A stretch of DNA of 37,386 bases from Dehalococcoidia bacterium (GTDB lineage: Bacteria; Chloroflexota; Dehalococcoidia; UBA2979): positions 1 to 37,386 of the forward strand of contig SCTU01000205.1 of NCBI GenBank assembly GCA_004297315.1. The letters run 5' to 3'. Positions 1,740 through 37,314 of this stretch are shown here, one piece after another (the first letter of the stretch is position 1; every line of letters begins with the position of its first letter). The position numbers and the translations under genes were made by a program. The notes under the pieces were generated by a model. It did not search any database. It was not told the DNA's origin and saw only the letters and a list, made by a program, of their open reading frames with translations.

Positions 1740-1768
1740 GGTACCATCCCTCCGCGGGGAGAACCGAG

Positions 1769-3288: not shown

Positions 3289-3302
3289 GCCGGAGGACAG
3301 CG

Positions 3303-6738: not shown

Positions 6739-7806
6739 TCAGGCGCTTCGGTTCCAGGCCAGCGAGAGCGTCATCGCGGCGAGGGCCAGTAGTGCGCCTG
6801 CTGCGGCGAACCCGAAGCTGATTTCAACATGCCGCTTCTGGAGCACGAACTCCTTCGGGAGATCGCGGAAGACCCCGACGAGTTGTTCCGCGTCTTCCGC
6901 ACGGTGATACGTGCCGCCGGTGAGGTCTGCGATTGACTGCAACGTCCTCTCGTCGATCCGGAGGATCGACCGCGGCGGACCGTCGGCGCCGTTGCGTCCG
7001 CTGCCCGGGCCTCCGAACTGGCCTCCGAAGGCGTCGCTCCCCAACTGCGCGCGCGAGCAGGAGAGCGGCGCGGGCGTGGTGGTGCCGAATCCGACCGAGT
7101 AGACACGGAGGTGCCGGTCGGCCGCCTCCTGCGCGGCCCTGAGCGGCGCGACGCCCTGCGTCGTCGCACCGTCAGTGAGCAGCACGACAATGTCCGGCTC
7201 GTAGGCACCCTGGGGCAACGCAGGGAGAGACGCCAGACCGAGGTCGTCGATGCGCGGCACATTCGGGTTGACGCTCGCAATCGCGTCGACGGAGCGCAGT
7301 AGCGCCGTGCCGATGGCGGTGCCCCGTCCGGCCTTGAGGCCGTCGATCGCCTCGATAAGCGCCTGACGGTCGGTCGTGGGCGGGACGAGGAGTTGCGCGC
7401 CACCCGAGAACGCGACGATGCCGATACGCGTCCCCTGCGGCTGGTCCGCGACGAACGTACGGGCCACCTCCTGCGCCACAGCCAGGCGGTTCGGGGCGAC
7501 GTCGGTCGAGCACATGGAGCGCGACACGTCGAGCGCAAGGATGATCGTGGTGCGGCTGGTCGGCACCATGACCACCGCCTGCGGGCGTGCCGCGGCCACA
7601 CCGAGGCTCAACAACGAGAGCAGGAGGAGCGCGAACGGCACCCATCTCCGCCAGCGGGTGCGTTTCGGCAGCGCCTCCCGCACCAGCAGGAGGCTCGCGT
7701 AGCGCACCGCAAAGCGGCGGCGACGACGGAGCATCAGGAGGTAGAACGCCACCAGCAGGGGCGCCAGCAGGGCCAGTGACAGCGCGTATGGCCACTCGAA
7801 GGTCAT
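6739..7806 (-). CDS. VWA domain membrane protein (BatB-like)
   Basis: ORF 6739-7830. I prefer the ATG at 7806 (MTFEWPYALSLALLAPLL), with GGGAGGG upstream and 2 nt after the preceding stop. It has N-terminal TM helices, the MIDAS motif LALDVSRSM, and a C-terminal TM helix. Confidence 0.85.
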   Translation of the reverse strand: MTFEWPYALSLALLAPLLVAFYLLMLRRRRRFAVRYASLLLVREALPKRTRWRRWVPFALLLLSLLSLGVAAARPQAVVMVPTSRTTIILALDVSRSMCSTDVAPNRLAVAQEVARTFVADQPQGTRIGIVAFSGGAQLLVPPTTDRQALIEAIDGLKAGRGTAIGTALLRSVDAIASVNPNVPRIDDLGLASLPALPQGAYEPDIVVLLTDGATTQGVAPLRAAQEAADRHLRVYSVGFGTTTPAPLSCSRAQLGSDAFGGQFGGPGSGRNGADGPPRSILRIDERTLQSIADLTGGTYHRAEDAEQLVGVFRDLPKEFVLQKRHVEISFGFAAAGALLALAAMTLSLAWNRSA

Positions 7807-7808
7807 GC

Positions 7809-8798
7809 CTATGGCACCCTCCCGAACCACTGGACCGTCAACATCGAACCCACGACCAGCAACAGCATGGCAACCCCCGCGAACACCGAGGTGACTTCGG
7901 TGGCCTCTCCACTCGTCGTGAGCTTGAGGTCGATCCTCTTGTAGGTGTCCACGAGCTGTTCTTCGTCCTCGGCACGGAGATAGACGCCGTCGGTCGCGTC
8001 CGCGATCTCCTTCAGAAGCGGCTCGTTCAATGCCGTCGCGATCTGATAGCCGTCCACCGTCAGGATCGCGCCCTCCGGCCGTCCGAGGCCGATCGGGAAC
8101 ACGCGGACGCCGGCATTGGCTGCGACCTCCGCCACGTCGAGCGGGTTGACCCGCGACGTGTGCTCGCCGTCGGACAGCATGACGATCACGGCAGAACCGA
8201 AATATCCGATGTCGAGCGAGAGCAGGTCTTCCTCGGATACGCCTTCGGGGATCGTGAGCGCCTTCCCCGCGATCGCGCCGAGCGACGCGAACATCCCCTC
8301 ACTCAGCGAGGTCCCGCCCTGGACGGAGAGCCGGTCGATCGCGGTCAGGACGTCTTGCTGCACGTCGGTCGGTTGGAGCATGACGAACGCGTTGTCGCTG
8401 AAGGCGACAACGCCGATCTTCACCGTGGACGGCTGCTTGCGGACAAACGCGGTCGCCGCCTGCTTCGCGGCCTCCATCCGTGACGGCTTGAGATCGTCCG
8501 CCTTCATGCTCGTCGAGACATCGAACGCGAGGATGACCGTGCCCTCGAGGTGGGGGATTGCCATGACGACGTTCGGACGCGCCAGCGACAGGAGGAGGAG
8601 TGCGATCGCGACGGCGAAGATGAGCGGCGGCACATGGCGACGGGACAGGAGGCGCCCCCGTGACCTCCCCTCGGTCACCTGCAACCCGAACTGTGCCGCG
8701 GCCGCGCTCCGGCGCCGGACGAGGTGCAGGTATGCCGTCACCAGGAGCGGCACGATCAACAGCGAAAGCAACATCGGAGGCCAGGCGAAGGAGATCAA
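7809..8798 (-). CDS. VWA domain membrane protein (BatA-like)
   Basis: The TTG start at 8798 overlaps the DUF58 stop (TTGA). The N-terminus is MISFAWPPMLLSLLIVPLL, the MIDAS motif is LAFDVSTSM, and there is a C-terminal TM helix. Confidence 0.85.
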   Translation of the reverse strand: MISFAWPPMLLSLLIVPLLVTAYLHLVRRRSAAAAQFGLQVTEGRSRGRLLSRRHVPPLIFAVAIALLLLSLARPNVVMAIPHLEGTVILAFDVSTSMKADDLKPSRMEAAKQAATAFVRKQPSTVKIGVVAFSDNAFVMLQPTDVQQDVLTAIDRLSVQGGTSLSEGMFASLGAIAGKALTIPEGVSEEDLLSLDIGYFGSAVIVMLSDGEHTSRVNPLDVAEVAANAGVRVFPIGLGRPEGAILTVDGYQIATALNEPLLKEIADATDGVYLRAEDEEQLVDTYKRIDLKLTTSGEATEVTSVFAGVAMLLLVVGSMLTVQWFGRVP

Positions 8799-9703
8799 CG
8801 GACTCTCCGCTTTCGTTGACCCGCCATCCGGACGAGTGCGGAGACCAGGTCGTCCTCGGTGGAGATGGCGAACGGGTCGACGCCTGCTCGCCGGAGGGTG
8901 GCGGCCAACCGCTCTTCGCGGGAGCGTGCCGCCTCCGCGAAGCGACGTCGCAAGACCGGGTCGCTTGAGTCCACAAGGACTTGCTCGCCGGTCTCAGAGT
9001 CCTCGAGCACCATGACACCAACGTCGGGGAACTCGACTTCGCGCGGGTCCCAGACCCGGATCGCGACCACGTCGTGGCGACGGCAGAGCAGTGACAGCGG
9101 ACGTTCCCAGCCCGGTTCGCTCAGAAAGTCCGAGACGAGGAAGACCATCGACCGACGCTTGATCGTGTTGAGCCCGGTCTGGATCAGCCCGTTCAAGTCG
9201 GTCGCCGTACGAGTACGTGCCGGGGGATTGAGCAGTTCACGCACCAGCCGCAGCACGTGCCGGCGTCCACCGCCGGGCGGGACGGTCCGCTCGACGACGT
9301 TGTTGTAGAGGATCGCCCCAACGCGGTTGCCACGGCGGGTGAACAGATGCGAGAGCGTCGTCACCAGGTCGACGAGCACGTGGCCTTTCGTGTGCTCATC
9401 CCGGCCGAACGCCATCGATGGCGACCGGTCGAGCAGCATCCACGCGGTCAGTTCGCGGTCCTCGAGGTACTCCCGGACATAGAGCGTGTGCATGCGCGCG
9501 GTGACGTTCCAGTCGATGTACCGCGCGTCATCCTCAGCCTGATACTCACGCAGGTCGGCGAAGTCCACACCCGCCCCGTAGAAGAGCGTGCGGTAGTCGC
9601 CCTGGAGCAAGCCGTCCAGCCGCCGGACGACCTGCCAGTCCAGCCGTCGGAGGACCTGCTCCGGCGTCGGCTCAGCGGCCGCTGGGGACGACATGCGCTC
9701 CAC
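8795..9703 (-). CDS. DUF58 domain protein (MoxR-operon partner)
   Basis: Motifs GDYRTLFYGAGVDFADLREYQAEDDARYIDWNVTAR are typical of DUF58. The start is either GTG 9703 or ATG 9694; both overlap the end of moxR. Confidence 0.85.
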   Translation of the reverse strand: MERMSSPAAAEPTPEQVLRRLDWQVVRRLDGLLQGDYRTLFYGAGVDFADLREYQAEDDARYIDWNVTARMHTLYVREYLEDRELTAWMLLDRSPSMAFGRDEHTKGHVLVDLVTTLSHLFTRRGNRVGAILYNNVVERTVPPGGGRRHVLRLVRELLNPPARTRTATDLNGLIQTGLNTIKRRSMVFLVSDFLSEPGWERPLSLLCRRHDVVAIRVWDPREVEFPDVGVMVLEDSETGEQVLVDSSDPVLRRRFAEAARSREERLAATLRRAGVDPFAISTEDDLVSALVRMAGQRKRRVR

Positions 9704-10694
9704 GCCTGCTTTCGATCAGGGATGCCTCAGGCAGCGGAATGCCCGGCAAGAGCTGCTCGATCACGCCATCAGCGCTGACGTTGGAGGCGAGCGCCTCGTA
9801 TGACAGCACGAGCCGGTGCCGGAGCACGTCGAACACGAGGTCGCGGACATCCTGTGGCAGCGCGTAGTCACGGCCGCGGATGAAGGCGAGGGCACGCCCT
9901 CCCAGGATCAGGTTGATCGACGCGCGCGGGCTGGCGCCGAACTCGATCAGGCGACGGAGGTCGCCCCGGCCTGCCGACTCCGGGTCACGCGTTGCCCGCG
10001 CCAGCCTGACCGCGTACTCCATCAATGCTGGGTCGACGTAGACAGCGTCTGCGGCCCGCTGGAACGCGAGCAACTGCTCGCCGTCGATGATCTGCTGCGT
10101 CGGCTCGAGCGAGCGTGTCATGCGCTCGACGATGACGAACTCCTCGGTCTGAGTGGGGTAGTCCACCAGGACCTTCAGCATGAAGCGGTCCTGCTGCGCC
10201 TCCGGGAGCGCGTACGTGCCCTCCGACTCGATCGGGTTCTGGGTCGCGAGGACGAGGAACGGGTTTGGCACGAGATGGGTCTCGCGGCCAATCGTTACGT
10301 GCCGTTCTTGCATCACTTCGAGCAGCGCGCTCTGCACCTTCGCCGGCGCGCGGTTGATCTCGTCCGCCAGCAGCAGGTTCGTGAACACCGGGCCCAGGGA
10401 GGTCTGGAACTCGCCCAGTTGCTGGTTGTAGATGCGGGTGCCCGTGAGGTCGGCGGGCACGAGGTCAGGTGTGAACTGCACCCGCCTGAAGTCGCCGCCG
10501 ACCGCCGCGGCCAACGTCTTGATCGCCAGCGTTTTGGCCAGGCCCGGCACGCCTTCGACCAGCACGTGGCCACGGGCAAGCAGGGCGACCAGAAGGCGTT
10601 CGAGGAGCGCGTCCTGCCCCACGATGACCTTCTTCATCTCGTACAGCACCTGCTCCATCGGCCGGTAGCTGTTCGACGGCGGTGCCACAGTCAT
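9672..10694 (-). CDS. MoxR-family AAA+ ATPase
   Basis: ORF 9672-10799. I prefer the ATG at 10694 (MTVAPPSNSYRPMEQV...), with GAGGAG upstream. Walker A is GVPGLAKT and Walker B is LLADEINRAP, followed by VLATQNPIE. Confidence 0.9.
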   Translation of the reverse strand: MTVAPPSNSYRPMEQVLYEMKKVIVGQDALLERLLVALLARGHVLVEGVPGLAKTLAIKTLAAAVGGDFRRVQFTPDLVPADLTGTRIYNQQLGEFQTSLGPVFTNLLLADEINRAPAKVQSALLEVMQERHVTIGRETHLVPNPFLVLATQNPIESEGTYALPEAQQDRFMLKVLVDYPTQTEEFVIVERMTRSLEPTQQIIDGEQLLAFQRAADAVYVDPALMEYAVRLARATRDPESAGRGDLRRLIEFGASPRASINLILGGRALAFIRGRDYALPQDVRDLVFDVLRHRLVLSYEALASNVSADGVIEQLLPGIPLPEASLIESRRGAHVVPSGR

Positions 10695-10713
10695 GACCTG
10701 CTCCTCTGATTCG

Positions 10714-11652
10714 TCATCGCTGCAGTCCGCCGGGGCCGCCTGTCCCGGCGAGCGGTACCGCGAACCCGATGCCGGTAAACGAGCGCTCGCTGGCGGCATT
10801 CGCGAGCGCGGTGACGATCCCGATGACCTGCCCGCGCCGGTTCAGGAGCGGACCGCCTGAGCTACCGGGGTTGACTGCGGCGTCGAACTGGATCAGGCCG
10901 GTCAGTTCGAGTGTGCCATGTCCGGGTGGGATCGTGCGGTTCAGGCCGGAGATCACCCCGGCACTGAGCGAGGCGGTGAGGCCAAGCGGGTTCCCGACCG
11001 CGTACGTCTCATCCCCCACCTGCATGCTCCCCGCGAGGACCGCGGGCACGATGAGTTCCGGCCCGGTGTCGGCGTGCAGGACGGCGAGGTCGTTCGGAAG
11101 GACATTGACGACTTCGGCCCTGGACTCGCTGCCGTCTGCGAACCTCACGGTGATAGTGCGTGCGCCGTCGATCACATGGTTCGCCGTGAGGATCATCCCG
11201 TCGGAGCGGACGATCACGCCGCTGCCGATCCCGGGACCGCGGTCGCCTTTCTCGTCGCCCTCCGTCTGGATGTAGACCAGCGATGGGAGGATAGTCTGGT
11301 ACACCTCGGTCGAATTCGGCGGGGCTTCCGCGGCACGCGCGATCGACGTCGCGACGGCCTCGCGGACGTCAGCCCGGGTGATCGGTGCTGGCTCAGGACG
11401 GAATCCTGCAAAGAGGAGGAGACCGGCCAGCGAGCCAAGGAGGCCGAGGGCGAGTGGCGCAAGCCATTTCCAGCCGATCCGGCGGCGTGCACCACGCTCA
11501 CCCGAATCGCTGCTGCGGCCTTGAGGAGTCACGGACGCGTGATGCGGCACGCTGCCGTGTCGCGTGGGCGATCGAGAGCTGCGTGATGCGGTAGAACACA
11601 CGAAAACGCCGGTGACATTGAGTCTCCGCTGCCGTGGTGGGACGGCGATCAT
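10714..11652 (-). CDS. Membrane-anchored trypsin-like serine protease (S1C/HtrA-like, no PDZ domain)
   Basis: Catalytic triad contexts are TANHVI, NDLAVL and GSSGGP. There is one TM segment (WLAPLALGLLGSLAGLLLFAGF). The stop lies 19 nt upstream of the moxR start. The true start is uncertain because the N-terminal tail is Arg/Ser-rich. Confidence 0.8.
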   Translation of the reverse strand: MIAVPPRQRRLNVTGVFVCSTASRSSRSPTRHGSVPHHASVTPQGRSSDSGERGARRRIGWKWLAPLALGLLGSLAGLLLFAGFRPEPAPITRADVREAVATSIARAAEAPPNSTEVYQTILPSLVYIQTEGDEKGDRGPGIGSGVIVRSDGMILTANHVIDGARTITVRFADGSESRAEVVNVLPNDLAVLHADTGPELIVPAVLAGSMQVGDETYAVGNPLGLTASLSAGVISGLNRTIPPGHGTLELTGLIQFDAAVNPGSSGGPLLNRRGQVIGIVTALANAASERSFTGIGFAVPLAGTGGPGGLQR

Positions 11653-27240: not shown

Positions 27241-28071
27241 TCAGGCGGGGCGGCGACGTTCCTCTGTCGCCTGCTCCAGGAACTCATTCCGGCAGCCGCG
27301 TGAGCAGAAGAAGTAGGTGAGCCCATCGCGTTCGCCGTTCACGGCGCGCTCCTGCTCGACGGACATTCCGCACACGGGGTCGGTGGCCATCGTGATCAGG
27401 TCCTTGAATTCGCCGTCCTCGAGCCACAGCACGCGGTCGGCGATGTCTTTGATGCGCTGGTCGTGCGACACGATCACGATGCTGCGGCCCTGCTCCTTCG
27501 CGATGCGGCGCAGCAGGCGCATGATCTCGTGCCCGATCTTCGAGTCGAGGTTCGCCGTCGGCTCGTCGGCGAGGATAAGCGCGGGGTCGTTGGCGAGCGC
27601 GCGCGCGATCGCCACGCGCTGCTTCTCCCCGCCGGACAGTTTCTCGGGCAGGAAGTCGAGGCGGTTGCCAAGGCCAAGGTCGGTCAGCGCGACCGTCGCG
27701 CGCTCGCGCGCTTCGTCTCGTTTCGCCCCCGCCAATTCTGCGACGAGCGCGACGTTCTCCAGCGCCGATAGCGCCGACAGCAGGTTGAAGTCCTGGAAGA
27801 TAAAGCCAAAGCGGGTACGGCGGATCGCCGGGAGTTGACGTTCGTCCAGCGCGGTGAGTTCGAGGCCGTCCAGTTCGATCTTGCCTTCGGTCGGCCGCAA
27901 CAGCGCGCCGAGCATCGATAACAGCGTGGTCTTCCCGGACCCCGACGGCCCCATGATCAGCACCACTTCGCCCTCCGCGACGTCAAGCGAGACGTCGCGT
28001 ACCGCCACGACTTCCGTGGGGCCGGAGCCAAAGCGCTTGCTCACGTGCGAGACTCGCAGGGTGGACGTCAT
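27241..28071 (-). CDS. ABC transporter ATP-binding protein (MacB/LolD-type) with a C-terminal YHS/TRASH metal-binding domain
   Basis: Walker A GPSGSGKT, signature LSGGEKQR, Walker B LILADEPT. The last 49 aa or so (about 27241-27390) read MATDPVCGMSVEQERAVNGERDGLTYFFCSRGCRNEFLEQ, which matches the DPVCGM...YYFCS..C YHS pattern. The ATGA start overlaps the upstream permease stop. Confidence 0.9.
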   Translation of the reverse strand: MTSTLRVSHVSKRFGSGPTEVVAVRDVSLDVAEGEVVLIMGPSGSGKTTLLSMLGALLRPTEGKIELDGLELTALDERQLPAIRRTRFGFIFQDFNLLSALSALENVALVAELAGAKRDEARERATVALTDLGLGNRLDFLPEKLSGGEKQRVAIARALANDPALILADEPTANLDSKIGHEIMRLLRRIAKEQGRSIVIVSHDQRIKDIADRVLWLEDGEFKDLITMATDPVCGMSVEQERAVNGERDGLTYFFCSRGCRNEFLEQATEERRRPA

Positions 28072-29186
28072 CCGGCGCCTCCTTTGAATACGACCGCAGG
28101 GTCGAGGCTCGCGATCTGCCGGATCGGAAGCGCCGCGGAGAGCGCCGCAATCACCAGGGACACTCCAACGGCCTTGAACATTGACGGAGCGCTGATGGCG
28201 AGCGAGATATTCGGCAAGGCGATGGGCACCACCACCGTCAGCAACAGCGTAAGCACGAGCCCCAGCAGGAAACCGGTGACCACGATCGACAGGGCCTGGG
28301 CAACTACCGCGACGTACAGATGGACGTTCCCGGCACCGATGGCCTTCAGCATGCCGTGCTCCGCCCGGCGCGAGAACGTGGCGATGTAGACCGTGAGCGC
28401 CATCACGGCGAGGCCGATCATGAAGCCCACCAGGTTCATGATCGAGCTCACGTCCGTCATCATGTCGTTGACCAGCGCCCGCTCTGCGCGGGCGAAAGCA
28501 TCGCGTGTCTGCGCGGTGGTGCCGGGAGTACTTGCCTCCAGGCGGGCCGCGACCGCCTCAGGAGCGGCGCCAGGGGTGACCTTGACCAGCACATAGCTCA
28601 CCACGGGCGGCCCACCTCGCAACTGGGCGAAGTCCTCGAACGAGACGAATGCGATCGAGTTCGTGAAGTTCGCGGTGCCGCCCGCAAGGCCGCTGATTAT
28701 GAACTCGTGGCCAAGGACCTTCACCCGGTCACCAATCCCCACGCCCGCATCCTCCGCCACCACGCGGTCGATGATCGCCTCGCCCCGACCGGGGATGGAC
28801 TTGCCGGCTGCGATGCGCCAGGGCCCGCCCATCGTCGCGTCGGCGGGCAGTCCGATGATGTAGGCGGCGTGCCGCCCCTCGCCGACCTCGACCATGTTGG
28901 AGAGGTAGAGGATCGGTGTGACCGAGTCGACGTCCGGCAGCCCGCGCAACTCCTCCACGACGGCCGCGGGAAGCGTGGACGTCGCCATGTGCATGTTCCG
29001 CACGCCTGCTTGCGACACGAAGACATCCGCGCCCGACTCCCGCATATACGCGGTGAGACGGCGCTGCGCGCCCTCGACGATCGCGTCAAAGGAGAAGATC
29101 AAGGTGAACGCGAGAGCGACACCGCCGAGCGAAACGGCGAGACGCGCCTTGTTCTGGAGTAGATTGCGGAGCGCGTATCGGAGCAT
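28068..29186 (-). CDS. ABC transporter permease, FtsX/MacB-type (372 aa)
   Basis: N-terminus MLRYALRNLLQNKARLAVSLGGVALA, a large extracytoplasmic domain, and three C-terminal TM helices, typical of FtsX-family permeases. Confidence 0.85.
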   Translation of the reverse strand: MLRYALRNLLQNKARLAVSLGGVALAFTLIFSFDAIVEGAQRRLTAYMRESGADVFVSQAGVRNMHMATSTLPAAVVEELRGLPDVDSVTPILYLSNMVEVGEGRHAAYIIGLPADATMGGPWRIAAGKSIPGRGEAIIDRVVAEDAGVGIGDRVKVLGHEFIISGLAGGTANFTNSIAFVSFEDFAQLRGGPPVVSYVLVKVTPGAAPEAVAARLEASTPGTTAQTRDAFARAERALVNDMMTDVSSIMNLVGFMIGLAVMALTVYIATFSRRAEHGMLKAIGAGNVHLYVAVVAQALSIVVTGFLLGLVLTLLLTVVVPIALPNISLAISAPSMFKAVGVSLVIAALSAALPIRQIASLDPAVVFKGGAG

Positions 29187-29190
29187 CGCG

Positions 29191-30309
29191 TCAGCCTCGG
29201 AAGACGTCGGCGGGTGCCAGCCGCGCGATGAGCCACGCTGGCGCGATTGACGCGAGCACTGCGATCAGAAGGCCGCTCCCGAGACTGGCCGCCACCGTGG
29301 TCGCCTCGACGACTACGAGGAATTGCGGCCGAAGCGCCATGATCAACTGCCCCGCCCCGGCGGCAAGCAAGACGCCAAGTGCGGCCCCGACCAGGGTTGT
29401 GACCAGTGCCTGCGTCGCGACGAGCAGGTAGAGCGTCCTGTTCTCCGCGCCGATCGCCTTGAGCACGCCGTACTCGCGTCGCCGCTCCACTGCCGCCGTG
29501 TAGATCACCAGGCCGACGACCAGCGTGCCGACGAAGAAGGCAATCGTGACCATCAACAGGATCGGGGCGTTGAAGAGCTTCCCCATGAGCGCCTCGTCGT
29601 TGGCGATCATCTGCCTCTTCGACAACGAGTTCGTCCCGGGCACGTCGCGCAGCCGCCCGAGGAGCGCCACGTCCGATGACCCTCGAGCGGGCTCAACGAA
29701 CAGGAAGCTGGCTGTACCGGGAGACACCGACAAGAGGCCTTCGAGGGCGCCCTTCCGGACGAAGAGGTAGTCGACCACGAAGCTGCTGGTCCCGCGCGAG
29801 AGCCCGACGAGTGTGAACGTGCGTCCAAGGAGTGAGAAGCGGTCTCCGACGTGCATGCCGTGACGGCTGGCAAGGACCCGGTCAAAGACGGCTTCATCGT
29901 CCGCAGCCGGGACGCGCCCTTCGCTCAGAAACCACGGTCCGCCGCCGCGCTCTGTCTCATAGCCGATGAGGTACACAGGCTGCTTACGGCCGTGGAGGTC
30001 GAGGATGGCAAACTGCGCGAGGACCGGCGTTACGCGGGCGACGCCATCGATGCGCTGGACAGCCTCATCCGTCCCTGCGGGCAACAGTGAGGTGGTCGCG
30101 AGCAGGTTGCCCACACCCTGCTGAGCCACAACGATCGAGCCGGGCATATGTTCCTGGTAAAGGCCCACCTGGCGGTACATCCCGCCTCGCAGCCCGCTGA
30201 GCAGCACCACGAGCGTCACGGCGAGCGCGACGCCTGCCACACTCAGCCCCAGGCGGGTCCGATTCCGGAGCAGGTTCCGGCTCGCCACGAACAACGTGCG
30301 ACTCGTCAT
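29191..30309 (-). CDS. ABC transporter permease, FtsX/MacB-type (372 aa, paralog of the adjacent gene)
   Basis: N-terminus FVASRNLLRNRTRLGLSVAGVALA with the same architecture. GGAGG lies directly upstream of the ATG at 30309. Confidence 0.85.
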   Translation of the reverse strand: MTSRTLFVASRNLLRNRTRLGLSVAGVALAVTLVVLLSGLRGGMYRQVGLYQEHMPGSIVVAQQGVGNLLATTSLLPAGTDEAVQRIDGVARVTPVLAQFAILDLHGRKQPVYLIGYETERGGGPWFLSEGRVPAADDEAVFDRVLASRHGMHVGDRFSLLGRTFTLVGLSRGTSSFVVDYLFVRKGALEGLLSVSPGTASFLFVEPARGSSDVALLGRLRDVPGTNSLSKRQMIANDEALMGKLFNAPILLMVTIAFFVGTLVVGLVIYTAAVERRREYGVLKAIGAENRTLYLLVATQALVTTLVGAALGVLLAAGAGQLIMALRPQFLVVVEATTVAASLGSGLLIAVLASIAPAWLIARLAPADVFRG

Positions 30310-30318
30310 CCTCCTGAT

Positions 30319-30336
30319 ACTACAGCGTGAAGTAGG
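30319..30336. promoter_or_regulatory. Dyad ACTAC-N8-GTAGG (CTAC-N8-GTAG), candidate BlaI/CopY-family operator
   Basis: ACTACAGCGTGAAGTAGG lies 10 nt upstream of the SD/start of the FtsX-FtsX-ATPase operon, in the region divergent to the Met-rich protein gene. A degenerate copy (CTACTACGGTATGTCGTGG) is at 30456-30474. Confidence 0.45.
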
Positions 30337-30530
30337 TCACCACGGAATCTGGGGCGTTCGCCCCATCTGACGATGTGGCACAGGTAGGCGAACGTCCTCC
30401 TCTTCAAAGGACTTAGGCCCACGCATCAGCCGGTGACAGTGTGCGACGATGTCATCTACTACGGTATGTCGTGGCCTTGCCTCGACACCCGCGCCCTGTG
30501 GGCGCGCGTTCTGGCTGAAAGAGGTGACCC

Positions 30531-30920
30531 ATGGACACACGTGCCCGCGCGATCGTCGGCGTCCTCGGGGCGACGGTCATCGTCCTGGCCGTTGCGCTGG
30601 TCGTGGTGATCGCCCGCGACGATGACGGCAGCACCGCCATGCACGGAGGCACCACGACCCCCTCGATGGGCATGATGCGGGCCATGGGCAACATGGACTC
30701 TGACGCCATGCTCACCCACATGCGCGATGTGCTGGGCAATGACGGATACCAGCGCATGCTCAAGCACATGCAGGGACACCGCGCGGGCGGGCCGATGGCA
30801 GGCGATCCGGCCATCGACGGGATGATGCACCAGATGATGGACGGGATGATGCAGCAGATGCCGGACGACAGCGGCGGCATGATGCCGCGCGCCACTGGCA
30901 CACCGACGGCGACACGCTAG
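30531..30920 (+). CDS. Membrane-anchored Met/His-rich protein (putative extracytoplasmic Cu(I)-binding protein)
   Basis: AAGAGG lies upstream of the ATG. There is one N-terminal TM helix (IVGVLGATVIVLAVALVVVIA). By my count the following 98 residues or so contain about 20 Met and several His, in MxxM / MM / HM clusters (GMMRAMGNMDSDAMLTHM, DGMMHQMMDGMMQQM). Confidence 0.7.
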   Translation: MDTRARAIVGVLGATVIVLAVALVVVIARDDDGSTAMHGGTTTPSMGMMRAMGNMDSDAMLTHMRDVLGNDGYQRMLKHMQGHRAGGPMAGDPAIDGMMHQMMDGMMQQMPDDSGGMMPRATGTPTATR

Positions 30921-31177
30921 CCTCGGCCGGCTGAGGCATGGAGACACCTCGAGTGGACGCGAGGACGACGGACGTCGAAGCCCCCCGGCAGATTTGCCCG
31001 GACAGCAGCCGTCGCAATCCTGCCTTTGAACGCGTCTCGGCCCGCTCCGTCGAAGCCTTCGTGACGGAACAGGGGTTGTTGGACCTCGGCGGCATCCGAG
31101 CAGCCTCACTGGACGCAGCGAGGAACTGACCGTCCGTACGGCTCAGCCGGCTGCGTGACCCTGCAGTCGTGGCCGGG

Positions 31178-33325
31178 TCAGGCCACTTTCTTCCGCTTCA
31201 GTAGTGCGGAATTCACGATGACCGACAGCGAACTAAGGGCCATCGCGGCCGCCGCGATGATGGGGTTGAGCAGGCCGATTGCCGCGACGGGGATCGCTGC
31301 GCTGTTGTAGGCGAGCGCCCAGAACAGGTTCTGTTTGATCTTGAGCATCGTCGCGCGAGAGAGGCGAATGCTCGTCACGACGTCACGCACATCGTCCTTG
31401 ATCAGGATGATGCCGCCCGTCTCTTTGGCCACGTCCGACCCGGACCCGATGGCTATGCCGATGTCGGCGGTCGCGAGGGCGGGCGCGTCGTTCACGCCGT
31501 CCCCGACCATCGCGACGACCTCGCCCGTACGCTGCATCCCGCGGATGACCTCGGCCTTATCCGCCGGCAGGACCTCGGCGATGACACGCTCGATCCCGAG
31601 CTCCGCAGCGATCGCCTGCGCCGTCCGCGGGTTGTCGCCGCTGAGCATCACGATGCCGATCCGGTCCTGGCGCAGGGCGTCGATGGCTTCGCGCGCCTCG
31701 GGTTTGATCGTGTCGGCGACGGCGATGATACCCGCGAGTACGCCGTCGACCGCGAGTAGCATCGCAGTCTTGCCCTGCACCTCGAGGCCGGCCATGGTCT
31801 TCTCGGCCGCGGCGGGATCAATGCCCTCGCGGGTCAGCAGGCGCCGGTTCCCCATCAGGATCGCGTGGCCGTCGCCGCTCCCACGGATCCCGTGCCCCGC
31901 GATGGCCTCGAAGCCGGACACGGCGGGCACATCCAGCCCGCGGTGCGTCGCCGCCTGGACGATGGCGCGCGCGAGCGGATGCTCGGAGCCGGCCTCCACC
32001 GCAGCGGCGAAGCGGAGCAGGTCCTGCTCGGAGACGCCGGCCAGCGGCACGACGTCGGTCACGGCGGGTTCGCCTCGCGTCAAGGTGCCTGTCTTGTCGA
32101 ATACCACCGTGGTGATCTTCTGCGCGCGCTCGAGGATTTCGGCGCCCCGGATCAGGATCCCGGCGTCGGCGGCCTTGCCGACGCCGACCATCAGAGCCGC
32201 TGGGGTGGCAATGCCGAGCGCGCAAGGACAGGCGATGATCAGGACGGCGACAAAGGCGAGCAGCCCCTTCGGGAACTCACCGGCGATCCACCACCCGCCG
32301 AACGCCAGCACAGCGATGCCCACGACGGCGGGGACGAAATACTGCACCACCTGGTCAGCGAGGCGCTGCACCTGTGCCGTGCTCGACTGCGCCTCTTCGA
32401 CCAGGCGCACGATCTGCGCGAGCGCGGTGTCCGAGCCGATCCGCGTCGCCCGGACCCGCAGCATGCCGGTCTGGTTGAGCGTGCCGCCGATCACCGAGCC
32501 ACCCTCGGCCTTTTCGACAGGCATCGACTCACCGGTCAGCATCGACTCGTCGACGGCCGAACGCCCCTCGACGACCGTGGCGTCGGTCGCGATCTTCTCG
32601 CCCGGCCGCACGACGAGGACTTCGTCGACCATGATCGACTCTGCCGGGATCTCTACCTCGGCCCCGTCGCGGACGACGTGTGCCGTCGCCGGCCGCAGGT
32701 CCATCAGCTTTCGGACGGCCGCCGAGGAGCGCGTCTTGATGACCTCCTCCATGTACTTGCCAAGTAGCACGAAGGCGATGATCACCGCCGAGACTTCAAA
32801 GTAGACGTCTCGTTCCTCGATGGACACCGGCAGCACGCGCGGGAAGAACACCACAAAGACGCTATAGACGTACGCCGTCGTCGTGCCGAGGGCGATGAGG
32901 AAGTCCATGTTGATGTTGCGGGTCCGGATCGCCGTCCAACTGCCCTTGTAGAAGGACCAGCCGCCAATGAACTGGACGGGCGTGACGAGGATGAACAGCC
33001 AGCGGCCCCACGTGAACCATGGCAACGCCGGGATCGGCGCCCAGGTCACAATGGTCGCGCCGGCCGCGAGCGCGATGAAGGCGCCGGCTCGGAGGATGGC
33101 GATGGCGACCACGCCGGTCAGCGCGATCGTGACGCGCCTCCGCATCGCCTTGATCTCAGTCTCGGGCGATTCGAAGGTGCGCAGACAGGTCGGGCTGCAG
33201 AAGTAGTAGGTGCGGCCGTTGCGCTCGGCGGTGAGCGCCGTCGACTTCTCGATCACCATGCCGCAGATCGGATCTTTCGCCATCCCGCTCGCGGCAGGCG
33301 GTGACTGCACCGGCGAGATGGTCAT
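31178..33325 (-). CDS. copA: Copper-translocating P1B-type ATPase with an N-terminal YHS/TRASH domain
   Basis: Motifs [24 protein letters not shown] and GDGVNDAP. The N-terminus reads [36 protein letters not shown] (a YHS pattern). No GMxCxxC HMA motif is visible. Confidence 0.92.
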
Positions 33326-33413
33326 CGGTCACCCAGCCGCGAGGTGGCCCGAGGCGTGGTTGCGCGGGCGACCGGGCGGGGCGGCCGCATCGCGAGGGGC
33401 CTGGCACATCTGG

Positions 33414-33560
33414 TCATTTCTTGATGTACCGCCCCGGGTCCTGCTGGAACTGACGCGCACACGAGTCACTACAGAAGTAGTACGTCTTGCCTTGCCACTC
33501 AGTCGACGCCGCGGCCGACTTGGGCTCCACATTCATCCCGCAGACAGGATCACGCGCCAC
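33414..33560 (-). CDS. 48-aa stand-alone YHS/TRASH domain protein (not in the ORF track)
   Basis: My translation from the GTG at 33560 is (M)ARDPVCGMNVEPKSAAASTEWQGKTYYFCSDSCARQFQQDPGRYIKK*. The start is 3 nt after the SHOCT gene stop, with GGAAGGGA upstream. Confidence 0.7.
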   Translation of the reverse strand: MARDPVCGMNVEPKSAAASTEWQGKTYYFCSDSCARQFQQDPGRYIKK

Positions 33561-33563
33561 CGC

Positions 33564-33833
33564 TCACCGTCCCTTCCCGCGTTCGGGCTGCTCGCCGAGG
33601 TCTGCGACGATCTGCAGATAGCGCTCGCGGTCGAGGTCACCTCTCGCGTAAGCGCGGCGGGCGATCTCCAATGCGTCATGGTCGGGAGGGGGCGGTGGCG
33701 GCGCGTCGTGACGGCGCCCGAGTTGCGTGGCGATCCACCACCCACCGATCAACAGCGGCAGCCACATGACTGCCATCATGAAGGTCATCCAGAGCCACGC
33801 CCAGCCGCCGAAATCGCCATTCCAATACCACAT
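33564..33833 (-). CDS. SHOCT-domain membrane protein (89 aa)
   Basis: Track ORF 33564-33914. I prefer the ATG at 33833 (MWYWNGDFGGWAWLWMTFMMAVMWLPLLIGGWWI), with GGAG 7 nt upstream. It has a poly-Pro linker and then ALEIARRAYARGDLDRERYLQIVADL, a SHOCT-like C-terminal motif. Confidence 0.65.
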   Translation of the reverse strand: MWYWNGDFGGWAWLWMTFMMAVMWLPLLIGGWWIATQLGRRHDAPPPPPPDHDALEIARRAYARGDLDRERYLQIVADLGEQPERGKGR

Positions 33834-33855
33834 GGCTGCGCTCCGATGTCTTGCT

Positions 33856-33873
33856 CCTACAGGCCATAGTAGT
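33856..33873. promoter_or_regulatory. Dyad CCTAC-N8-GTAGT (CTAC-N8-GTAG), candidate BlaI/CopY-family operator
   Basis: CCTACAGGCCATAGTAGT lies 23 nt upstream of the SHOCT ATG, in the 106-bp gap after doxX. It is positioned to control SHOCT-YHS-copA. Confidence 0.45.
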
Positions 33874-33939
33874 CGGCTCAACTGGCGCCCGGTCAGGGAC
33901 GTTTGACCCACCAATCATGGGACATCCGGCTACCGGCGA

Positions 33940-34632
33940 TCAGCTGGCATTGTGACGCCACGTCGCCCCGGTCGTGACGATCAGCGCCAGTACGGCCATT
34001 GCTGCCCAAGTCTCCGCCCCCGAAACCGCCAGGGCGAGCGCTGCGGCGGCGAGCAACGCGAGCACGAAGAGCATCTCGTGCCCCAGCCGCTTTACCTGTC
34101 CCGGCAGACGGGCCGCCGCCCATGGGACCCCCCAACCGTCGAGGCCGAACCGGCCCGCGTGATGGCCAAAGAACGCCAGCGCGAGGCCCAGGAGCAGCAT
34201 CGGCGGGTTGGTGGACGTCGTCCCAGCCCAGACAAAGGCGAGGTTCATGGTCACGCCGGCGAGCGCGGAGAATCGCGTGAGCAGCCCCACAATCAGGGCG
34301 ATCCCCACGAGAAGCTCGCCGTAGGTGACCAGCACCGCGAGCAACGTCGCGTTCGGAAGAAAGACCTCCTGGACGAGCGTGTGGTACCAGTGCGGGACCT
34401 CCGGATGCGGCCCCGCGGTCGACTTTGCGATCGCGCCCTGCAGGAATCCGCTGATCGCCTTGCCTCGCGGCTCCGCCGTCCAGCCGGGGTCGTCGAGCTT
34501 CTCCCACCCCGCGCGGACCCAGGACACTCCGAGCACGAGGCGAATGAACAGCCACGCCCCGGCCTCGAACCGCCACAGCGACGGCCGTGCGGGCGCCCCG
34601 ACGCTCCCGGTAGGTGCCGGGTGAGGCCTCAC
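33940..34632 (-). CDS. DoxX-family membrane protein
   Basis: The GTG start overlaps the upstream stop (GTGA). The multi-TM profile includes LFIRLVLGVSWVRAGWEKL and LVTYGELLVGIALIVGLLTRFSALAG, typical of DoxX/DoxD. Confidence 0.8.
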   Translation of the reverse strand: MRPHPAPTGSVGAPARPSLWRFEAGAWLFIRLVLGVSWVRAGWEKLDDPGWTAEPRGKAISGFLQGAIAKSTAGPHPEVPHWYHTLVQEVFLPNATLLAVLVTYGELLVGIALIVGLLTRFSALAGVTMNLAFVWAGTTSTNPPMLLLGLALAFFGHHAGRFGLDGWGVPWAAARLPGQVKRLGHEMLFVLALLAAAALALAVSGAETWAAMAVLALIVTTGATWRHNAS

Positions 34633-35036
34633 GGTGCCACCGTGCCCGAGGCGCCCAGCCCTTCGTGCCCGGGATGGTCCGTCGAGTGCGCCTCGGGCTC
34701 CGCGAGCCGCTCGCGGATGGCCGGGCCAACCCAGACCGTCGAGACGGTGAACAAGATGGCGAACACGAGCACGGCAATGCCCGGTGCGACCCAGGTGCCG
34801 AAACGACGCCGAAGTCGCAGTAGCGACGGCACCATGAGGAGCAGCCCGATCGCACCAAACACCACGGTGCCGGTGAGCCCCGAGACCACGGCGGCACCAG
34901 CGATTGGGCCAACGTGGTGAAGGACGTGCGGGGCGATCCCGCTCGCTGCCCCGATGGCCCCCGCCAGTGCGACGCGGAGCCGGACTCCGGGGCCGCGTCG
35001 TGGGACCGTGTCCAGCGTGCGTGCGGTGATGCTCAT
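34629..35036 (-). CDS. Hypothetical membrane protein with HVLHHVGP and C-terminal His-rich motifs
   Basis: Track ORF 34629-35102. I prefer the ATG at 35036 (MSITARTLD...). About four TM helices are predicted by eye. It carries an H-x2-HH motif at the first TM helix and the tail EAHSTDHPGHEG. I do not recognise a family. Confidence 0.5.
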   Translation of the reverse strand: MSITARTLDTVPRRGPGVRLRVALAGAIGAASGIAPHVLHHVGPIAGAAVVSGLTGTVVFGAIGLLLMVPSLLRLRRRFGTWVAPGIAVLVFAILFTVSTVWVGPAIRERLAEPEAHSTDHPGHEGLGASGTVAP

Positions 35037-35157
35037 GCGGAGCCTCGTCGACCGAACGAGCCGACCTCGATGGACCGGACCGCCTGATCCTACACGAACC
35101 ACGACCGTCGGTAGTAGTTGTGCGACGATCGCGAAGCAGAAGTCAGAGAGGCCGCAA

Positions 35158-35964
35158 CTAACCGAGATGGGGGCAGGCGACGCAGAAGATACCGGTCCAG
35201 ATCAGCGCATGGGCGAGGAGGGGCAGTCCGAACAGCCCCGCGAATACCGGCGCCGCCTGCCGCTCGCTGACGAGAGGCGGGGTCTCAGGCTGCGCGAGCC
35301 ATGCCAGCCGCTCAGCCGTGCCGACGCCGGACAACGCTGCCCCACCCGCCGCGACGCCTGCCGCGCCGACGATGGCCTCGAACAGGTCTTCGCGTCTGGC
35401 GCCCGCCGCGAGGGCCGCGCTGTCGGCGCGCCACTCCATCTCAATCCTCAGGCTGCTGAACAGGCGCCGCGCGCCGGGGAATGCGCCGACGGCGGCTTCC
35501 GCGAGGGAGACCAGCGCCAGCCAACGCACGTCATGGTGGGACATATGCGCCCGTTCGTGCAGCAGCGCAGCATGCAACGCCCCGGCATCGAGCGTTTGCT
35601 CGGCGCCAGCCGTTGCGTAGATCACGGGCTGCCGGAGGCCGGCCGTGAAGAGCGCCACCTGGGTGCCGGGCACACTGACGTAGCGGACACCTCCGGAACT
35701 CTGCGGCAGGCCCTGCCGTGTGAGTGCCGTGAGACAACGCTCGGCGACTATCCAGCGGACCGCCCCGCGCCCGAGGCCGATGAGGGGCAGAAGGGAGACC
35801 GCGCCCAGCACGGACAATGGGATGAGATCGAGGTGCGCTCCGAGATGTGGTGCGGCGCCAGAATGGGATGCGACCGCGGGGGCGAGCATGTGGGCAAAGG
35901 CGAGCGGGAACGCGACTCCGCCGAGGACCGCGACGGCCAGTGTCGCGCGCGCGCCGGTACTCAC
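35158..35964 (-). CDS. M56-family (BlaR1/MecR1-like) membrane zinc metalloprotease lacking an extracellular sensor domain
   Basis: The GTG start overlaps the repressor stop (GTGA). The HEXXH motif is LLHERAHMSHHD. The protein is 268 aa with TM helices. The N-terminal His cluster is AHMLAPAVASHSGAAPHLGAHLD and the extreme C-terminus is IFCVACPHLG. Confidence 0.8.
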   Translation of the reverse strand: MSTGARATLAVAVLGGVAFPLAFAHMLAPAVASHSGAAPHLGAHLDLIPLSVLGAVSLLPLIGLGRGAVRWIVAERCLTALTRQGLPQSSGGVRYVSVPGTQVALFTAGLRQPVIYATAGAEQTLDAGALHAALLHERAHMSHHDVRWLALVSLAEAAVGAFPGARRLFSSLRIEMEWRADSAALAAGARREDLFEAIVGAAGVAAGGAALSGVGTAERLAWLAQPETPPLVSERQAAPVFAGLFGLPLLAHALIWTGIFCVACPHLG

Positions 35965-36344
35965 CGCCGCATCCTCAGTTTCGACCGAAGCGTGGCGACC
36001 ATCTGCGGGTCGAGGCGGTTCGCCTCCGCGAGAAATGCTCCGACGCCGGCGGTGCCGAGGTCGACCAGGACGGCGGCGAGGGATTCGGCGCGACGTTCGG
36101 CGAACTCCTCGCGCGTCATCGCGGGAGCATAGAGGTGGCTCCGTCCGCCGGCACGCCGCACGACGAGCCGTTTTACCGTGAGCCGTTGAAGCACCGTCAA
36201 GATCGTGGTGTAGGAGAGGCCACGCGGCGTCCCCACGCGCTCGTAGGTCGCCGGGGTTGAGAGTTCACCCTCGTCCCAGAGTGCGTCCAGCACAGCGGCT
36301 TCCAGTTCGCCCAGTGGTTGAAGAGGGTTCCGCTTTCGTGCCAT
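35961..36344 (-). CDS. BlaI/MecI/CopY-family winged-helix transcriptional repressor (no cysteines)
   Basis: LGELEAAVLDALWDEGELSTPATYERVG...LSYTTILTVLQRLTVKRLVVRR is typical of the penicillinase-repressor family. It is 127 aa, contains no Cys, and lacks the CopY C-terminal CxCx4CxC motif. Confidence 0.85.
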   Translation of the reverse strand: MARKRNPLQPLGELEAAVLDALWDEGELSTPATYERVGTPRGLSYTTILTVLQRLTVKRLVVRRAGGRSHLYAPAMTREEFAERRAESLAAVLVDLGTAGVGAFLAEANRLDPQMVATLRSKLRMRR

Positions 36345-36367
36345 GACGACATCGTACCAGCAGCAAC

Positions 36368-36381
36368 ATGGCGATCGCCAT
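36368..36381. promoter_or_regulatory. Perfect 14-bp palindrome ATGGCGATCGCCAT in the divergent repressor/cupredoxin promoter region
   Basis: Self-complementary over all 14 nt and directly abuts the CTAC-N8-GTAG dyad. Its function is unknown. Confidence 0.3.
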
Positions 36382-36383
36382 CA

Positions 36384-36401
36384 ACTACGACAGCACGTAG
36401 T
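36384..36401. promoter_or_regulatory. Dyad ACTACG-N6-CGTAGT (CTAC-N8-GTAG), candidate autoregulatory BlaI/CopY-family operator
   Basis: Perfect 6-bp inverted repeat ACTACGacagcaCGTAGT, 40 nt upstream of the repressor ATG (36344) and 51 nt upstream of the cupredoxin GTG (36452). Confidence 0.5.
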
Positions 36402-36451
36402 ATCATTGGGCGTGGCGGAAGCCCCGCCCCCACCGATGGAAGGATCGCCGA

Positions 36452-36928
36452 GTGCCGGCAGTCATATTGCGGCGCGTCTCCCTCGTCGCTTCGCTCGTGG
36501 CCGCCGCCCTGGTCGCCGCCTGCGCGGGCAGCGACCAGGGCGGCGGCGCAGGTTCGTCTGCTTCCAGCGCCAGTCTGGTCACGGTTGTGGCAACGGATCT
36601 CGCGTTTGAGCCTCGAGAGGTCCGCATCGCCGCTGACCAGCGCGTGAGCGTGCGGCTCAAGAACAAGGGGAAGGTTCTCCACGACTGGACCATCGAGCGC
36701 ATCCCAGTGACCGGAGTCGAGATGCGAGCGTCCGATAACCATGCGATGGAGCCTGGCGGCGGCATGGTGTCCGGGAGCGCAGGCCCTGGTGAGCTGCACA
36801 TCGCCGCCGAGGTGGGCCGAACGGCGCAGATCACCTTCACACCGAAACAGCCCGGCGAGTACGTCTTCTACTGCACGGTGGCCGGCCATCGGCAGGCAGG
36901 GATGCAAGGCAGGCTGGTCGTCGGATGA
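36452..36928 (+). CDS. Cupredoxin (type-1 blue copper) lipoprotein
   Basis: GGAAGGA lies 7 nt upstream of the GTG at 36452. The lipobox is LVAACAG. The copper ligand pattern is H (VLHDW) ... C-x4-H-x4-M (FYCTVAGHRQAGM). Confidence 0.85.
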   Translation: MPAVILRRVSLVASLVAAALVAACAGSDQGGGAGSSASSASLVTVVATDLAFEPREVRIAADQRVSVRLKNKGKVLHDWTIERIPVTGVEMRASDNHAMEPGGGMVSGSAGPGELHIAAEVGRTAQITFTPKQPGEYVFYCTVAGHRQAGMQGRLVVG

Positions 36929-37314
36929 GGCGCTGGCGCAGCATGACTCGGTGGAGACTCCGCGTGGCGATCGCGCTCGCCGCGTCCGTTGCCGTCGCAG
37001 GCGCGTGCGGGGGAGGCTCAGAGCCTGCTCCCGCGTTCACGGGGACCGATGGCGCCGCACTCTACGCTCAGGCCTGCGCCTCGTGTCACGGTGCCGGCCT
37101 GCGAGGCACGAAGCAGGGCCCGCCCTTCCTGGACGCGATCTACCGTCCGGGGCATCACGCCGACGCGGCGTTCTTCCTTGCGGTGAAGGGCGGCGCACGC
37201 CAGCACCACTGGAACTTCGGAAACATGCCGCCGGTCCAGGGCCTCAGCGACCCACAGATCGAGGCCATCGTCGCCTTAGTCCGAGAACGACAGCACGCCG
37301 CCGGCATCGACTGA
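36925..37314 (+). CDS. Class-I c-type cytochrome lipoprotein
   Basis: The ATGA start overlaps the cupredoxin stop. The lipobox is VAGACGG, the haem site is CASCH, and the candidate distal Met is in GNMPP. Confidence 0.85.
   Translation: MRRWRSMTRWRLRVAIALAASVAVAGACGGGSEPAPAFTGTDGAALYAQACASCHGAGLRGTKQGPPFLDAIYRPGHHADAAFFLAVKGGARQHHWNFGNMPPVQGLSDPQIEAIVALVRERQHAAGID

Follow-up and report, generated by a model that had tools for sequence, protein, structure and literature searches.

Bacterial copper sensing is usually ascribed to CueR, CsoR, CopY or two-component systems. To our knowledge, PetR/PetP is the one copper switch working by proteolysis that has been described to date, and it is seen as a cyanobacterial device for the choice between plastocyanin and cytochrome c6. 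The subject of this report is a copper gene cluster on contig SCTU01000205.1 of a Dehalococcoidia bacterium (37,386 bp, the whole stretch of DNA that was analysed and hereafter the window). It contains the genes of a BlaI-type repressor and an M56-type membrane metalloprotease, together with a repeated 17-bp palindrome, TAC-KAC-N5-GTM-GTA. Most likely the palindromes mark a predicted copper regulon that is conserved in Chloroflexota and controlled by a BlaI/M56 pair resembling PetRP.

The BlaI and MecI repressors of Staphylococcus aureus and Bacillus licheniformis are inactivated by proteolysis. The CopY, CopR and TcrY repressors of Enterococcus, Lactococcus and Streptococcus sense Cu(I) and Zn(II) directly through a C-terminal CxCx4CxC motif, and their operator is the cop box TACAnnTGTA.

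PetR and PetP of Synechocystis (Slr0240 and Slr0241) and other cyanobacteria are a BlaI-family factor without cysteine and an M48/M56 protease without a sensor domain, whose genes overlap at their stop and start codons. Degradation of PetR requires both PetP and copper. The core of the PetR operator is GAC-N5-GTC; the site lies between -35 and -10 in the promoter of petE (plastocyanin), which is repressed, and near -35 in that of petJ, which is activated. PetP has four transmembrane helices, and two conserved Met of its periplasmic loop were proposed as copper ligands (Garcia-Canas et al., bioRxiv 10.1101/2020.07.31.226407; PNAS 2021). PetRP controls just four genes, petE, petJ and slr0601/2, and has been described as not governing copper homeostasis; the same 2023 review considers the role of BlaR homologues in heterotrophs still to be elucidated (PMC10141476). 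The partner protease of the Mycobacterium tuberculosis pair BlaI/BlaR (Rv1846c/Rv1845c) also lacks a sensor domain, and its signal is unknown (eLife 2017, PMC5473688). A literature search, of incomplete coverage, found no copper-linked BlaI/M56 system and no link of BlaI/M56 to copper export outside cyanobacteria.

The pair in the window is neither a CopY system nor an antibiotic sensor of the BlaR1/MecR1 type, and by analogy it would work most like PetRP. The likeness to Slr0240/Slr0241 was judged from their published description and from the operator pattern. Both systems have a BlaI-type factor without Cys, an overlapping gene for a sensor-less protease, a cupredoxin target and a copper context. 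They also share the AC-N5-GT operator core with its spacing (the window sites show GAC-N5-GTA or TAC-N5-GTx cores), and the repressor site lies between or over the -35 and -10 elements. They differ in that the operators described here add an outer TAC/GTA triplet, and in the predicted targets, which here comprise CopA, YHS proteins, a MacB-type ABC exporter with a YHS tag, Met-rich proteins and CopI-like cupredoxins. In addition, the protease has three predicted transmembrane helices rather than the four of PetP, its candidate ligands are His and Cys (H25, H252, C264 and a loop His) instead of two loop Met, and the host belongs to Chloroflexota.

The palindrome in the window

Five copies of TAC-KAC-N5-GTM-GTA, with 0 to 2 mismatches each, are present in the window, and each precedes a transcription unit of the copper cluster. 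They are listed here with their scores against a weight matrix trained on 36 related loci only (L001-L036, described below):

O1, 30318..30334, TACTACAGCGTGAAGTA, 18.4 bits, contains the dyad 30320-30335
O2, 30457..30473, TACTACGGTATGTCGTG, 20.8 bits, 57 nucleotides (nt) upstream of the Met-rich gene
O3, 33855..33871, TCCTACAGGCCATAGTA, 17.7 bits, contains the dyad 33857-33872
O4, 35100..35116, CACGACCGTCGGTAGTA, 20.9 bits, in the gap that separates the M56 stop (35158) from the gene of a small membrane protein
O5, 36386..36402, TACGACAGCACGTAGTA, 27.1 bits, a perfect consensus match, contains the dyad 36385-36400

The five sites stand apart from the rest of the window. They take the five highest scores with the matrix trained without the window, the next independent position reaches 8.9 bits, and the highest score over 50 shuffles of the window was 14.7 bits. 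The centres of the half-sites are 11 bp apart, or about one helical turn. The pattern CYAC-N8-GTAGKA matches the window five times against 0.01 expected, and it was devised after the sites were known. To escape such window-designed patterns, the palindrome was judged independently, on related loci retrieved through the repressor protein alone. The flanks are unrelated, and conservation is confined to the 12 palindromic positions. That a single window holds only a few sites might speak for chance or for a non-functional dispersed repeat. The unrelated flanks speak against that explanation, the shuffles and the conservation across genomes refute it, and its probability is negligible.

The original prediction had taken the dyad CTAC-N8-GTAG (CTACNNNNNNNNGTAG) as the symmetric unit. 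There are indeed exactly three copies in the window, at 30320-30335, 33857-33872 and 36385-36400, and this is far above the expected 0.08 (three copies were reached in none of 100 dinucleotide shuffles). All three are intergenic and lie as described relative to the genes. However, the conserved element is the 17-bp palindrome. CTAC-N8-GTAG is an off-centre alias of it, composed of the inner triplet of one half-site and the outer triplet of the other, plus a flanking G. As a search pattern the dyad is specific, since 32 of its 32 occurrences in the related loci fall on a 17-bp site, and insensitive, since it lies inside 30 of the 77 real sites there. A search for the dyad with one mismatch added 30456-30474 and 35099-35117, which share CCACGAC-N5-GTAGTAG. 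The first of these had been reported as a degenerate copy; it corresponds to O2 and outscores two of the three exact dyads. The second corresponds to O4, a fifth site (35100-35116) that had been overlooked.

Other sequence elements were considered in the window. With no match in Rfam and tRNA scans, the dyads do not belong to any known RNA element. The 11-mer TGTGCGACGAT occurs at 30441-30451 and 35119-35129, adjoining O2 and O4 in opposite orientations. It is probably due to chance, as it is not kept beside the orthologous sites in L081, L082 and L001. The pattern GAC-N5-GTC, which is the recognition pattern of AhdI-type restriction enzymes, occurs eight times in the whole window against 23.1 +/- 4.3 expected, and all 100 shuffles had at least eight. 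This scarcity may reflect restriction avoidance.

Position of the sites in promoters

Alignment of orthologous promoters reveals conserved -10-like hexamers next to the sites. A sigma-70 consensus scan of 30150-36600 found no promoter. The -10 assignments (TAnnAT) rest on alignment with L081, L082 and L001, where the hexamers are kept at fixed distances, and they are readings of the sequence rather than mapped transcription starts. L081 and L082 were retrieved through the M56 protein. L081 has counterparts of O3, O4 and O5, and both L082 and L001 have counterparts of O4 and O5; the half-sites are kept and the spacers vary.

O1 and O3 include -10-like hexamers in their half-sites. On the minus strand O1 reads TACTTC-ACGCT-GTAGTA, followed by T-CAGGAGG-ATG. 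Its dyad ends 11 nt before the ftsX ATG (30309, minus), and the Met-rich gene (30531) runs divergently from it. A TAGTAT (30317-30322) formed by the right half-site stands 7 nt ahead of this ATG and suggests that the ftsX mRNA is leaderless. Operators also precede the orthologues of this gene, FtsX_a, in L008, L016 and L033. O3 reads TACTAT-GGCCT-GTAGGA on the minus strand and lies 21 nt before the ATG at 33833 (24 nt for its dyad). Its left half-site, TACTAT, can itself serve as a -10-like hexamer. The counterpart in L081, TACTAT-GAGCT-GTAGGA, has the same deviant half-sites and a different spacer.

O4 and O5 are kept in position in all three comparison loci. O4 is followed after 7 nt on the minus strand by the -10-like TAGGAT (35087-35092); the same downstream sequence, gttcgtgTAG(G/T)AT, is found in L081, L082 and L001 with a gap of 7 to 8 nt. 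O5 stands between the start of blaI (ATG at 36344, minus) and that of the cupredoxin gene (GTG at 36452, plus), and it overlaps the -10-like TATCAT (36401-36406, plus) of the cupredoxin promoter. In the other direction it is 28 nt upstream of a conserved TGgTA(C/G)GAT, which stands 6 to 7 nt before the blaI start codon. In the window this putative blaI promoter is TGgTACGAT, with its hexamer at 36351-36356 on the minus strand, implying that the blaI mRNA would be leaderless and that O5 would be at about -42 to -58 of the putative promoter. The arrangement around O5 is the same in L081, L082 and L001.

These placements would fit repression by occlusion. They also raise the question of whether the palindromes are promoter elements themselves. 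A half-site followed by T gives TAnnAT, and half-sites overlap -10-like hexamers at O1, O3 and O5. On the other hand, a 17-mer of two-fold symmetry whose 5-bp spacer varies is typical of the operator of a dimeric winged-helix protein and not of -10 and -35 elements.

The repressor and the protease

The best candidate for the binding protein is encoded within the cluster, beside the gene of a membrane protease:

35961..36344, minus strand, blaI-type repressor, 127 amino acids, winged helix, Penicillinase_R (PF03965)
35158..35964, minus strand, M56-type membrane zinc metalloprotease, 268 amino acids, HERAH at residues 136-140

The repressor is certainly a member of the BlaI/MecI/CopY superfamily and part of a BlaI/M56 pair. 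It matches PF03965 over residues 11-123 with 71.7 bits (cut-off 22.6). The closest solved homologue is M. tuberculosis BlaI (PDB 2G9W, profile E-value 2.7e-20, residues 7-125), and the recognition helix LSYTTILTVLQRL is nearly identical to the mycobacterial LAYTTVMAVLQRL. The mycobacterial BlaI/BlaR pair also resembles the one in the window in its sensor-less protease partner; it differs in its reported regulon, which consists of blaC, ATP synthase and cytochrome bd genes and not of copper export genes. Profile E-values against BlaI and MecI of S. aureus and B. licheniformis are only about 1e-8. The BlaI/BlaR1 and MecI/MecR1 systems of these organisms likewise combine a repressor with an M56 zinc protease and use TAC.../...GTA dyads. 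However, their operator is TACA/TGTA and they have a penicillin-binding sensor domain and a link to antibiotics, while the operator here is a different sequence and the sensor domain is absent. F104 of the repressor, considered as a counterpart of the scissile Phe of BlaI, is nearly invariant; the alignment with the solved BlaI proteins is ambiguous around this position.

Direct copper sensing by the repressor is rejected. The original prediction had drawn an analogy to CopY and its TACA-N2-TGTA operator, in which case the repressor would bind Cu(I) itself and leave the DNA, and the M56 protein would be irrelevant to sensing. CopY shares its Pfam family with the repressor and also targets a copA-containing operon, and there is a weak match to the CopY/TcrY model TIGR02698 (E 2.7e-6). 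However, this match scores 27.7 bits against a cut-off of 121.95. There is no Cys in the 127 residues, nor in 32 aligned orthologues, and hence no CxCx4CxC. No exact cop box occurs in the window, and none of the four TACAnnTGTA matches with one mismatch is at a promoter. The M56 gene is also translationally coupled to the repressor gene in orthologous loci, and the pair is present in 34 of 36. A CopY-type mechanism is thus very improbable. What stands of the original prediction is a single copper regulon with a conserved motif, for which the adjacent repressor is the best candidate binder.

The protease resembles the membrane and protease parts of BlaR1 and has no recognizable sensor domain. 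Its GTG start overlaps the TGA stop of blaI (GTGA, 35961-35964). The match to Pfam Peptidase_M56 (27.5 bits) is below the cut-off of 31. In the AlphaFold model (predicted local distance difference test 81, predicted template modelling score 0.78), three long membrane helices surround a gluzincin domain. The best PDB match of this model is the transmembrane and protease part of S. aureus BlaR1, with probabilities of 0.96-1.0 (top 8exq_A, 1.00). There is no extracellular penicillin-binding sensor domain, and the protein ends at the last transmembrane helix. Among close homologues H25, H136/E137/H140, E177, H252 and C264 are invariant. H25 and H252 are nearly universal in a wider M56 set, while the Cys is not. 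The loop between the first two transmembrane helices (residues about 33-47) carries His. The C-terminal CVAC (CxxC) was considered as a copper site and rejected, since it is found only in the window and L001.

Conservation in related Chloroflexota

The palindrome accompanies the repressor gene in a set of related loci. For this comparison 33 repressor homologues were aligned and then one genome per species was scanned. The resulting loci, L001-L036, come from metagenome-assembled genomes (MAGs) of Chloroflexota (Dehalococcoidia, Tepidiformaceae and others); their repressors are 54-80% identical and they comprise 445 kb. The 17-mer occurs in them in 46 copies without mismatch and 31 with one mismatch, against 0.0 and 0.85 in shuffles. 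It is visible upstream of the repressor orthologues, for example as TACTACGCTATGTCGTA in L001 and TACTACAGCGTGTAGTA in L026. An unbiased count of 6-mers upstream of blaI orthologues puts TACTAC/GTAGTA first in enrichment (10-fold, with 24 of 35 regions containing it). Intergenic DNA makes up only 14% of the loci, yet it holds at least 49 of 81 sites (P ~1e-21). This figure is conservative because the gene caller over-extends 5' ends, so that some of the "coding" sites are promoter sites.

The sites precede a recurring set of genes. Targets were assigned with a crude gene caller, by homology to the window proteins and by clustering of the remaining neighbours. A strong site was defined as one of at least 15 bits, and it was counted if it was directly upstream of a gene or of the head of its operon. 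The numbers of loci with a strong site are:

blaI, 24 of 36
M56 (via blaI), 22 of 34
CopI-like cupredoxins with Met/His-rich N-termini, 15 of 20
Met-rich proteins, 9 of 9
small MMAMM-CC membrane protein, 10 of 10
CopA, 8 of 19
YHS proteins, 5 of 9
FtsX_a, 3 of 6
M50-CBS protease, 5 of 6
PCYCGC proteins, 4 of 7

Two of these families are distinct from the proteins of the window. The CopI-like cupredoxins, second in frequency among the operator targets of the related loci, form another family than the window cupredoxin. The MMAMM-CC protein, which matches no Pfam family and is not found in the window, has about 74 amino acids, two transmembrane helices, an MMAMMAVCC motif and a His-rich C-terminus (L015 6938-7162, L035 7345-7563 and eight other loci).

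The sites exist far beyond chance, in promoters, and across a phylum they are maintained together with the repressor gene and copper-related targets. The copper theme is a property of the clade and not of the window alone. Conservation in orthologous promoters, a check named in the original prediction, was found in dozens of genomes for blaI, cupredoxin, Met-rich, CopA/YHS, FtsX-ABC and small membrane-protein genes. It is very likely that the five sites of the window are functional operators tied to this BlaI subfamily.

The local 127-amino-acid protein, rather than a paralogue, is the likely binder. Some MAGs contain two paralogous blaI-M56 loci (L011 and L015 in CHL9, L025 and L033 in cluster1_bin.313), and the two loci of one MAG carry the same operator type, so a paralogous BlaI might bind the sites; an unrelated factor is the other candidate. 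However, the motif was recovered through the repressor alone and is found upstream of the repressor gene in 24 of the 36 loci. It also accompanies distant BlaI homologues of Actinomycetota, and no other regulator gene is consistently linked in the related loci. Binding by another protein, taken together with the promoter-element explanation discussed above, is improbable.

Genes of the copper cluster

The predicted regulon of the window includes export, metal-binding and redox proteins. The genes around the repressor and the protease are:

27241-28071, minus strand, ABC ATPase with C-terminal YHS (Pfam ABC_tran and YHS)
28068-29186, minus strand, MacB/FtsX permease (Pfam MacB_PCD and FtsX)
29191-30309, minus strand, MacB/FtsX permease, the first ftsX gene (Pfam MacB_PCD and FtsX)
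30531-30920, plus strand, Met-rich protein, secreted or membrane-anchored, no Pfam family
31178-33325, minus strand, CopA-type P1B ATPase with N-terminal YHS (Pfam P-type ATPase and YHS)
33414-33560, minus strand, YHS/TRASH protein of 48 amino acids (CGM...YYFCS..C; the L082 orthologue has PF04945)
33564-33833, minus strand, small membrane protein with SHOCT-like C-terminus, first gene after O3 (start supported by L081 gene 12240-12506)
33940-34632, minus strand, DoxX-family membrane protein (Pfam DoxX, 41 bits)
34629-35036, minus strand, small membrane protein, first gene after O4 (about 135 amino acids from ATG 35036; the open reading frame reaches GTG 35102)
36452-36928, plus strand, cupredoxin with type-1 Cu ligands and a Met/His-rich insert
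36925-37314, plus strand, c-type cytochrome, overlapping the cupredoxin gene by 4 nt

Pfam bore out the gene identities of the original prediction with two qualifications. Peptidase_M56 scored below its cut-off, with the HEXXH motif present, and the SHOCT label has a sub-threshold match only (E 0.049) although the small gene itself is there.

Several of the proteins have features related to copper export. CopA carries the CPC, YN and MALSS (MxxSS) motifs typical of Cu(I)/Ag(I) exporters. The gene order of the FtsX-FtsX-ABC operon (27241..30309) is kept in L008, L014, L016, L023 and L033. At its C-terminus the ATPase carries a YHS/TRASH domain for metal binding (Pfam 40.1 bits), and we know of no characterised exporter with this combination of a MacB-type ABC protein and YHS. 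Among ten genes of the related loci that match the YHS-tagged ATPase, four are in operator-headed operons; they were matched on the ATPase, whatever their tail. The protein encoded at 34629-35036 has an HVLHH motif and no Pfam family, and its orthologues follow an O4-type site in L001, L081 and L082. The cupredoxin is weakly CopI-like (59.5 bits against the CopI model cut-off of 280), and a divergent cupredoxin(-cytochrome c) is also found in these three loci.

Two other gene groups were noted elsewhere in the window. An ImuB-like Y-family polymerase gene (IMS domain) followed by a DnaE2-like polymerase III alpha gene occupies 1733-6689, in the arrangement of a mutagenesis cassette. A cluster of MoxR AAA ATPase, DUF58, VWA and BatA/VWA genes lies at 6739-10799 on the minus strand.

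Discussion

The proposed mechanism is release of a repressor by proteolysis. A dimer of the 127-amino-acid BlaI-family protein would bind the five TAC-(G/T)AC-N5-GT(A/C)-GTA operators. These are predicted to overlap or abut the -10 elements of the promoters of ftsX-ftsX-abc(YHS), the Met-rich gene, SHOCT-like-YHS-copA, small-membrane-protein-doxX and cupredoxin-cytochrome c, so that bound repressor would block RNA polymerase. O5 would in addition stand upstream of blaI-M56. The repressor has no metal-binding Cys, and the signal is for this reason assigned to the translationally coupled, sensor-less M56 membrane metalloprotease. Rising copper (or silver) would cause M56 to cleave the repressor and the whole set to be de-repressed, by the same logic as in PetR/PetP. 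We infer binding by the repressor, repression, its cleavage by M56 and copper as the trigger. The model as a whole, with five operators, the local BlaI repressor and de-repression of the copper genes through M56 by copper or silver, is rather probable. The step of M56 proteolysis triggered by copper or silver, based on gene content and the PetRP precedent, appears only slightly better than even.

Several observations weigh against the model or parts of it. A strong upstream site is missing from 12 of the 36 blaI orthologues. The position of O5 at -42 to -58 makes the autoregulation of blaI-M56 uncertain: it may be negative, absent or even positive, as for PetR at petJ. The exact PetR core GAC-N5-GTC is absent from all five window sites, although it is present in related loci (e.g., L024, L010 and L018), and the conserved Met pair of the PetP loop has no obvious equivalent in M56. 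The structural match between M56 and BlaR1 is weak (template modelling score 0.41-0.47, E about 1e-2). Cross-talk may occur between blaI-M56 paralogues such as those found in single MAGs, and another paralogue elsewhere in the genome of the window could share its operators. In addition, the density of sites refers to 37 kb of the source genome.

The operator type extends beyond Chloroflexota. The matrix trained on Chloroflexota finds several strong sites (15-27.7 bits) at distant loci of the BlaI/M48-M56 kind in Williamsia, Rhodococcus, Enemella and Propionibacterium (L053 3054-10102, L062 6700-10022, L039, L041, L052, L073, L075 and L080). They are of the TACTAC-N5-GTAGTA type and adjoin genes for CopC-domain proteins, Caa3_CtaG, DsbA/VKOR, DsbD (DsbD_TM), L,D-transpeptidase and M23 peptidase. 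Judging from these matrix hits, the sensor-less BlaI/BlaR pairs of actinobacteria may use the same kind of operator and perhaps respond to a copper or envelope signal as well. The operator of M. tuberculosis BlaI is reportedly of the TAC.AC/GT.GTA type, and its presumed similarity to the operators here is based on the shared recognition helix.

The same neighbours bear on the nature of the trigger. With operators and repressor as described, the signal might be envelope stress, thiol or redox stress, another metal or another ligand, and the copper genes would then be part of a broader stress regulon. This would agree with the Dsb/VKOR, L,D-transpeptidase and M23 genes that are found beside the actinobacterial operators in addition to CopC and CtaG, with the M50-CBS proteases and PCYCGC proteins among the Chloroflexota targets, and with the fact that the signal of the mycobacterial sensor-less BlaR homologues is unknown (eLife 2017, PMC5473688). 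However, nearly all targets in the window and the related loci are associated with copper (the ATPase with CPC, YN and MxxSS motifs, three YHS domains, Met/His-rich cupredoxins and Met-rich proteins), and PetRP, the only characterised sensor-less pair, responds to copper. A trigger other than copper is thus unlikely, though it is the most serious of the alternatives.

Tentatively, and with considerable doubt, the BlaI/BlaR pairs that lack a sensor domain in Chloroflexota and in Actinomycetota, the M. tuberculosis type among them, could be one ancient family of proteolytic copper sensors that all use TAC-KAC-N5-GTM-GTA. M56 would read periplasmic or membrane copper through conserved transmembrane His and Cys (H25, H252 and C264 in the window), and in Chloroflexota the pair would be the master switch of copper detoxification, including the YHS-tagged MacB-type ABC exporter.

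The window and about 35 related loci are a case in which a BlaI/M56 pair appears to control copper export and detoxification, with the operator, five sites and a list of targets defined. The reach of the operator model into Actinomycetota bears on what the mycobacterial sensor-less BlaR senses. The regulon also points to a probable copper role for families that are so far unannotated, namely the Met-rich proteins, the MMAMM-CC protein, the HVLHH membrane protein and the YHS-tagged ABC exporter.

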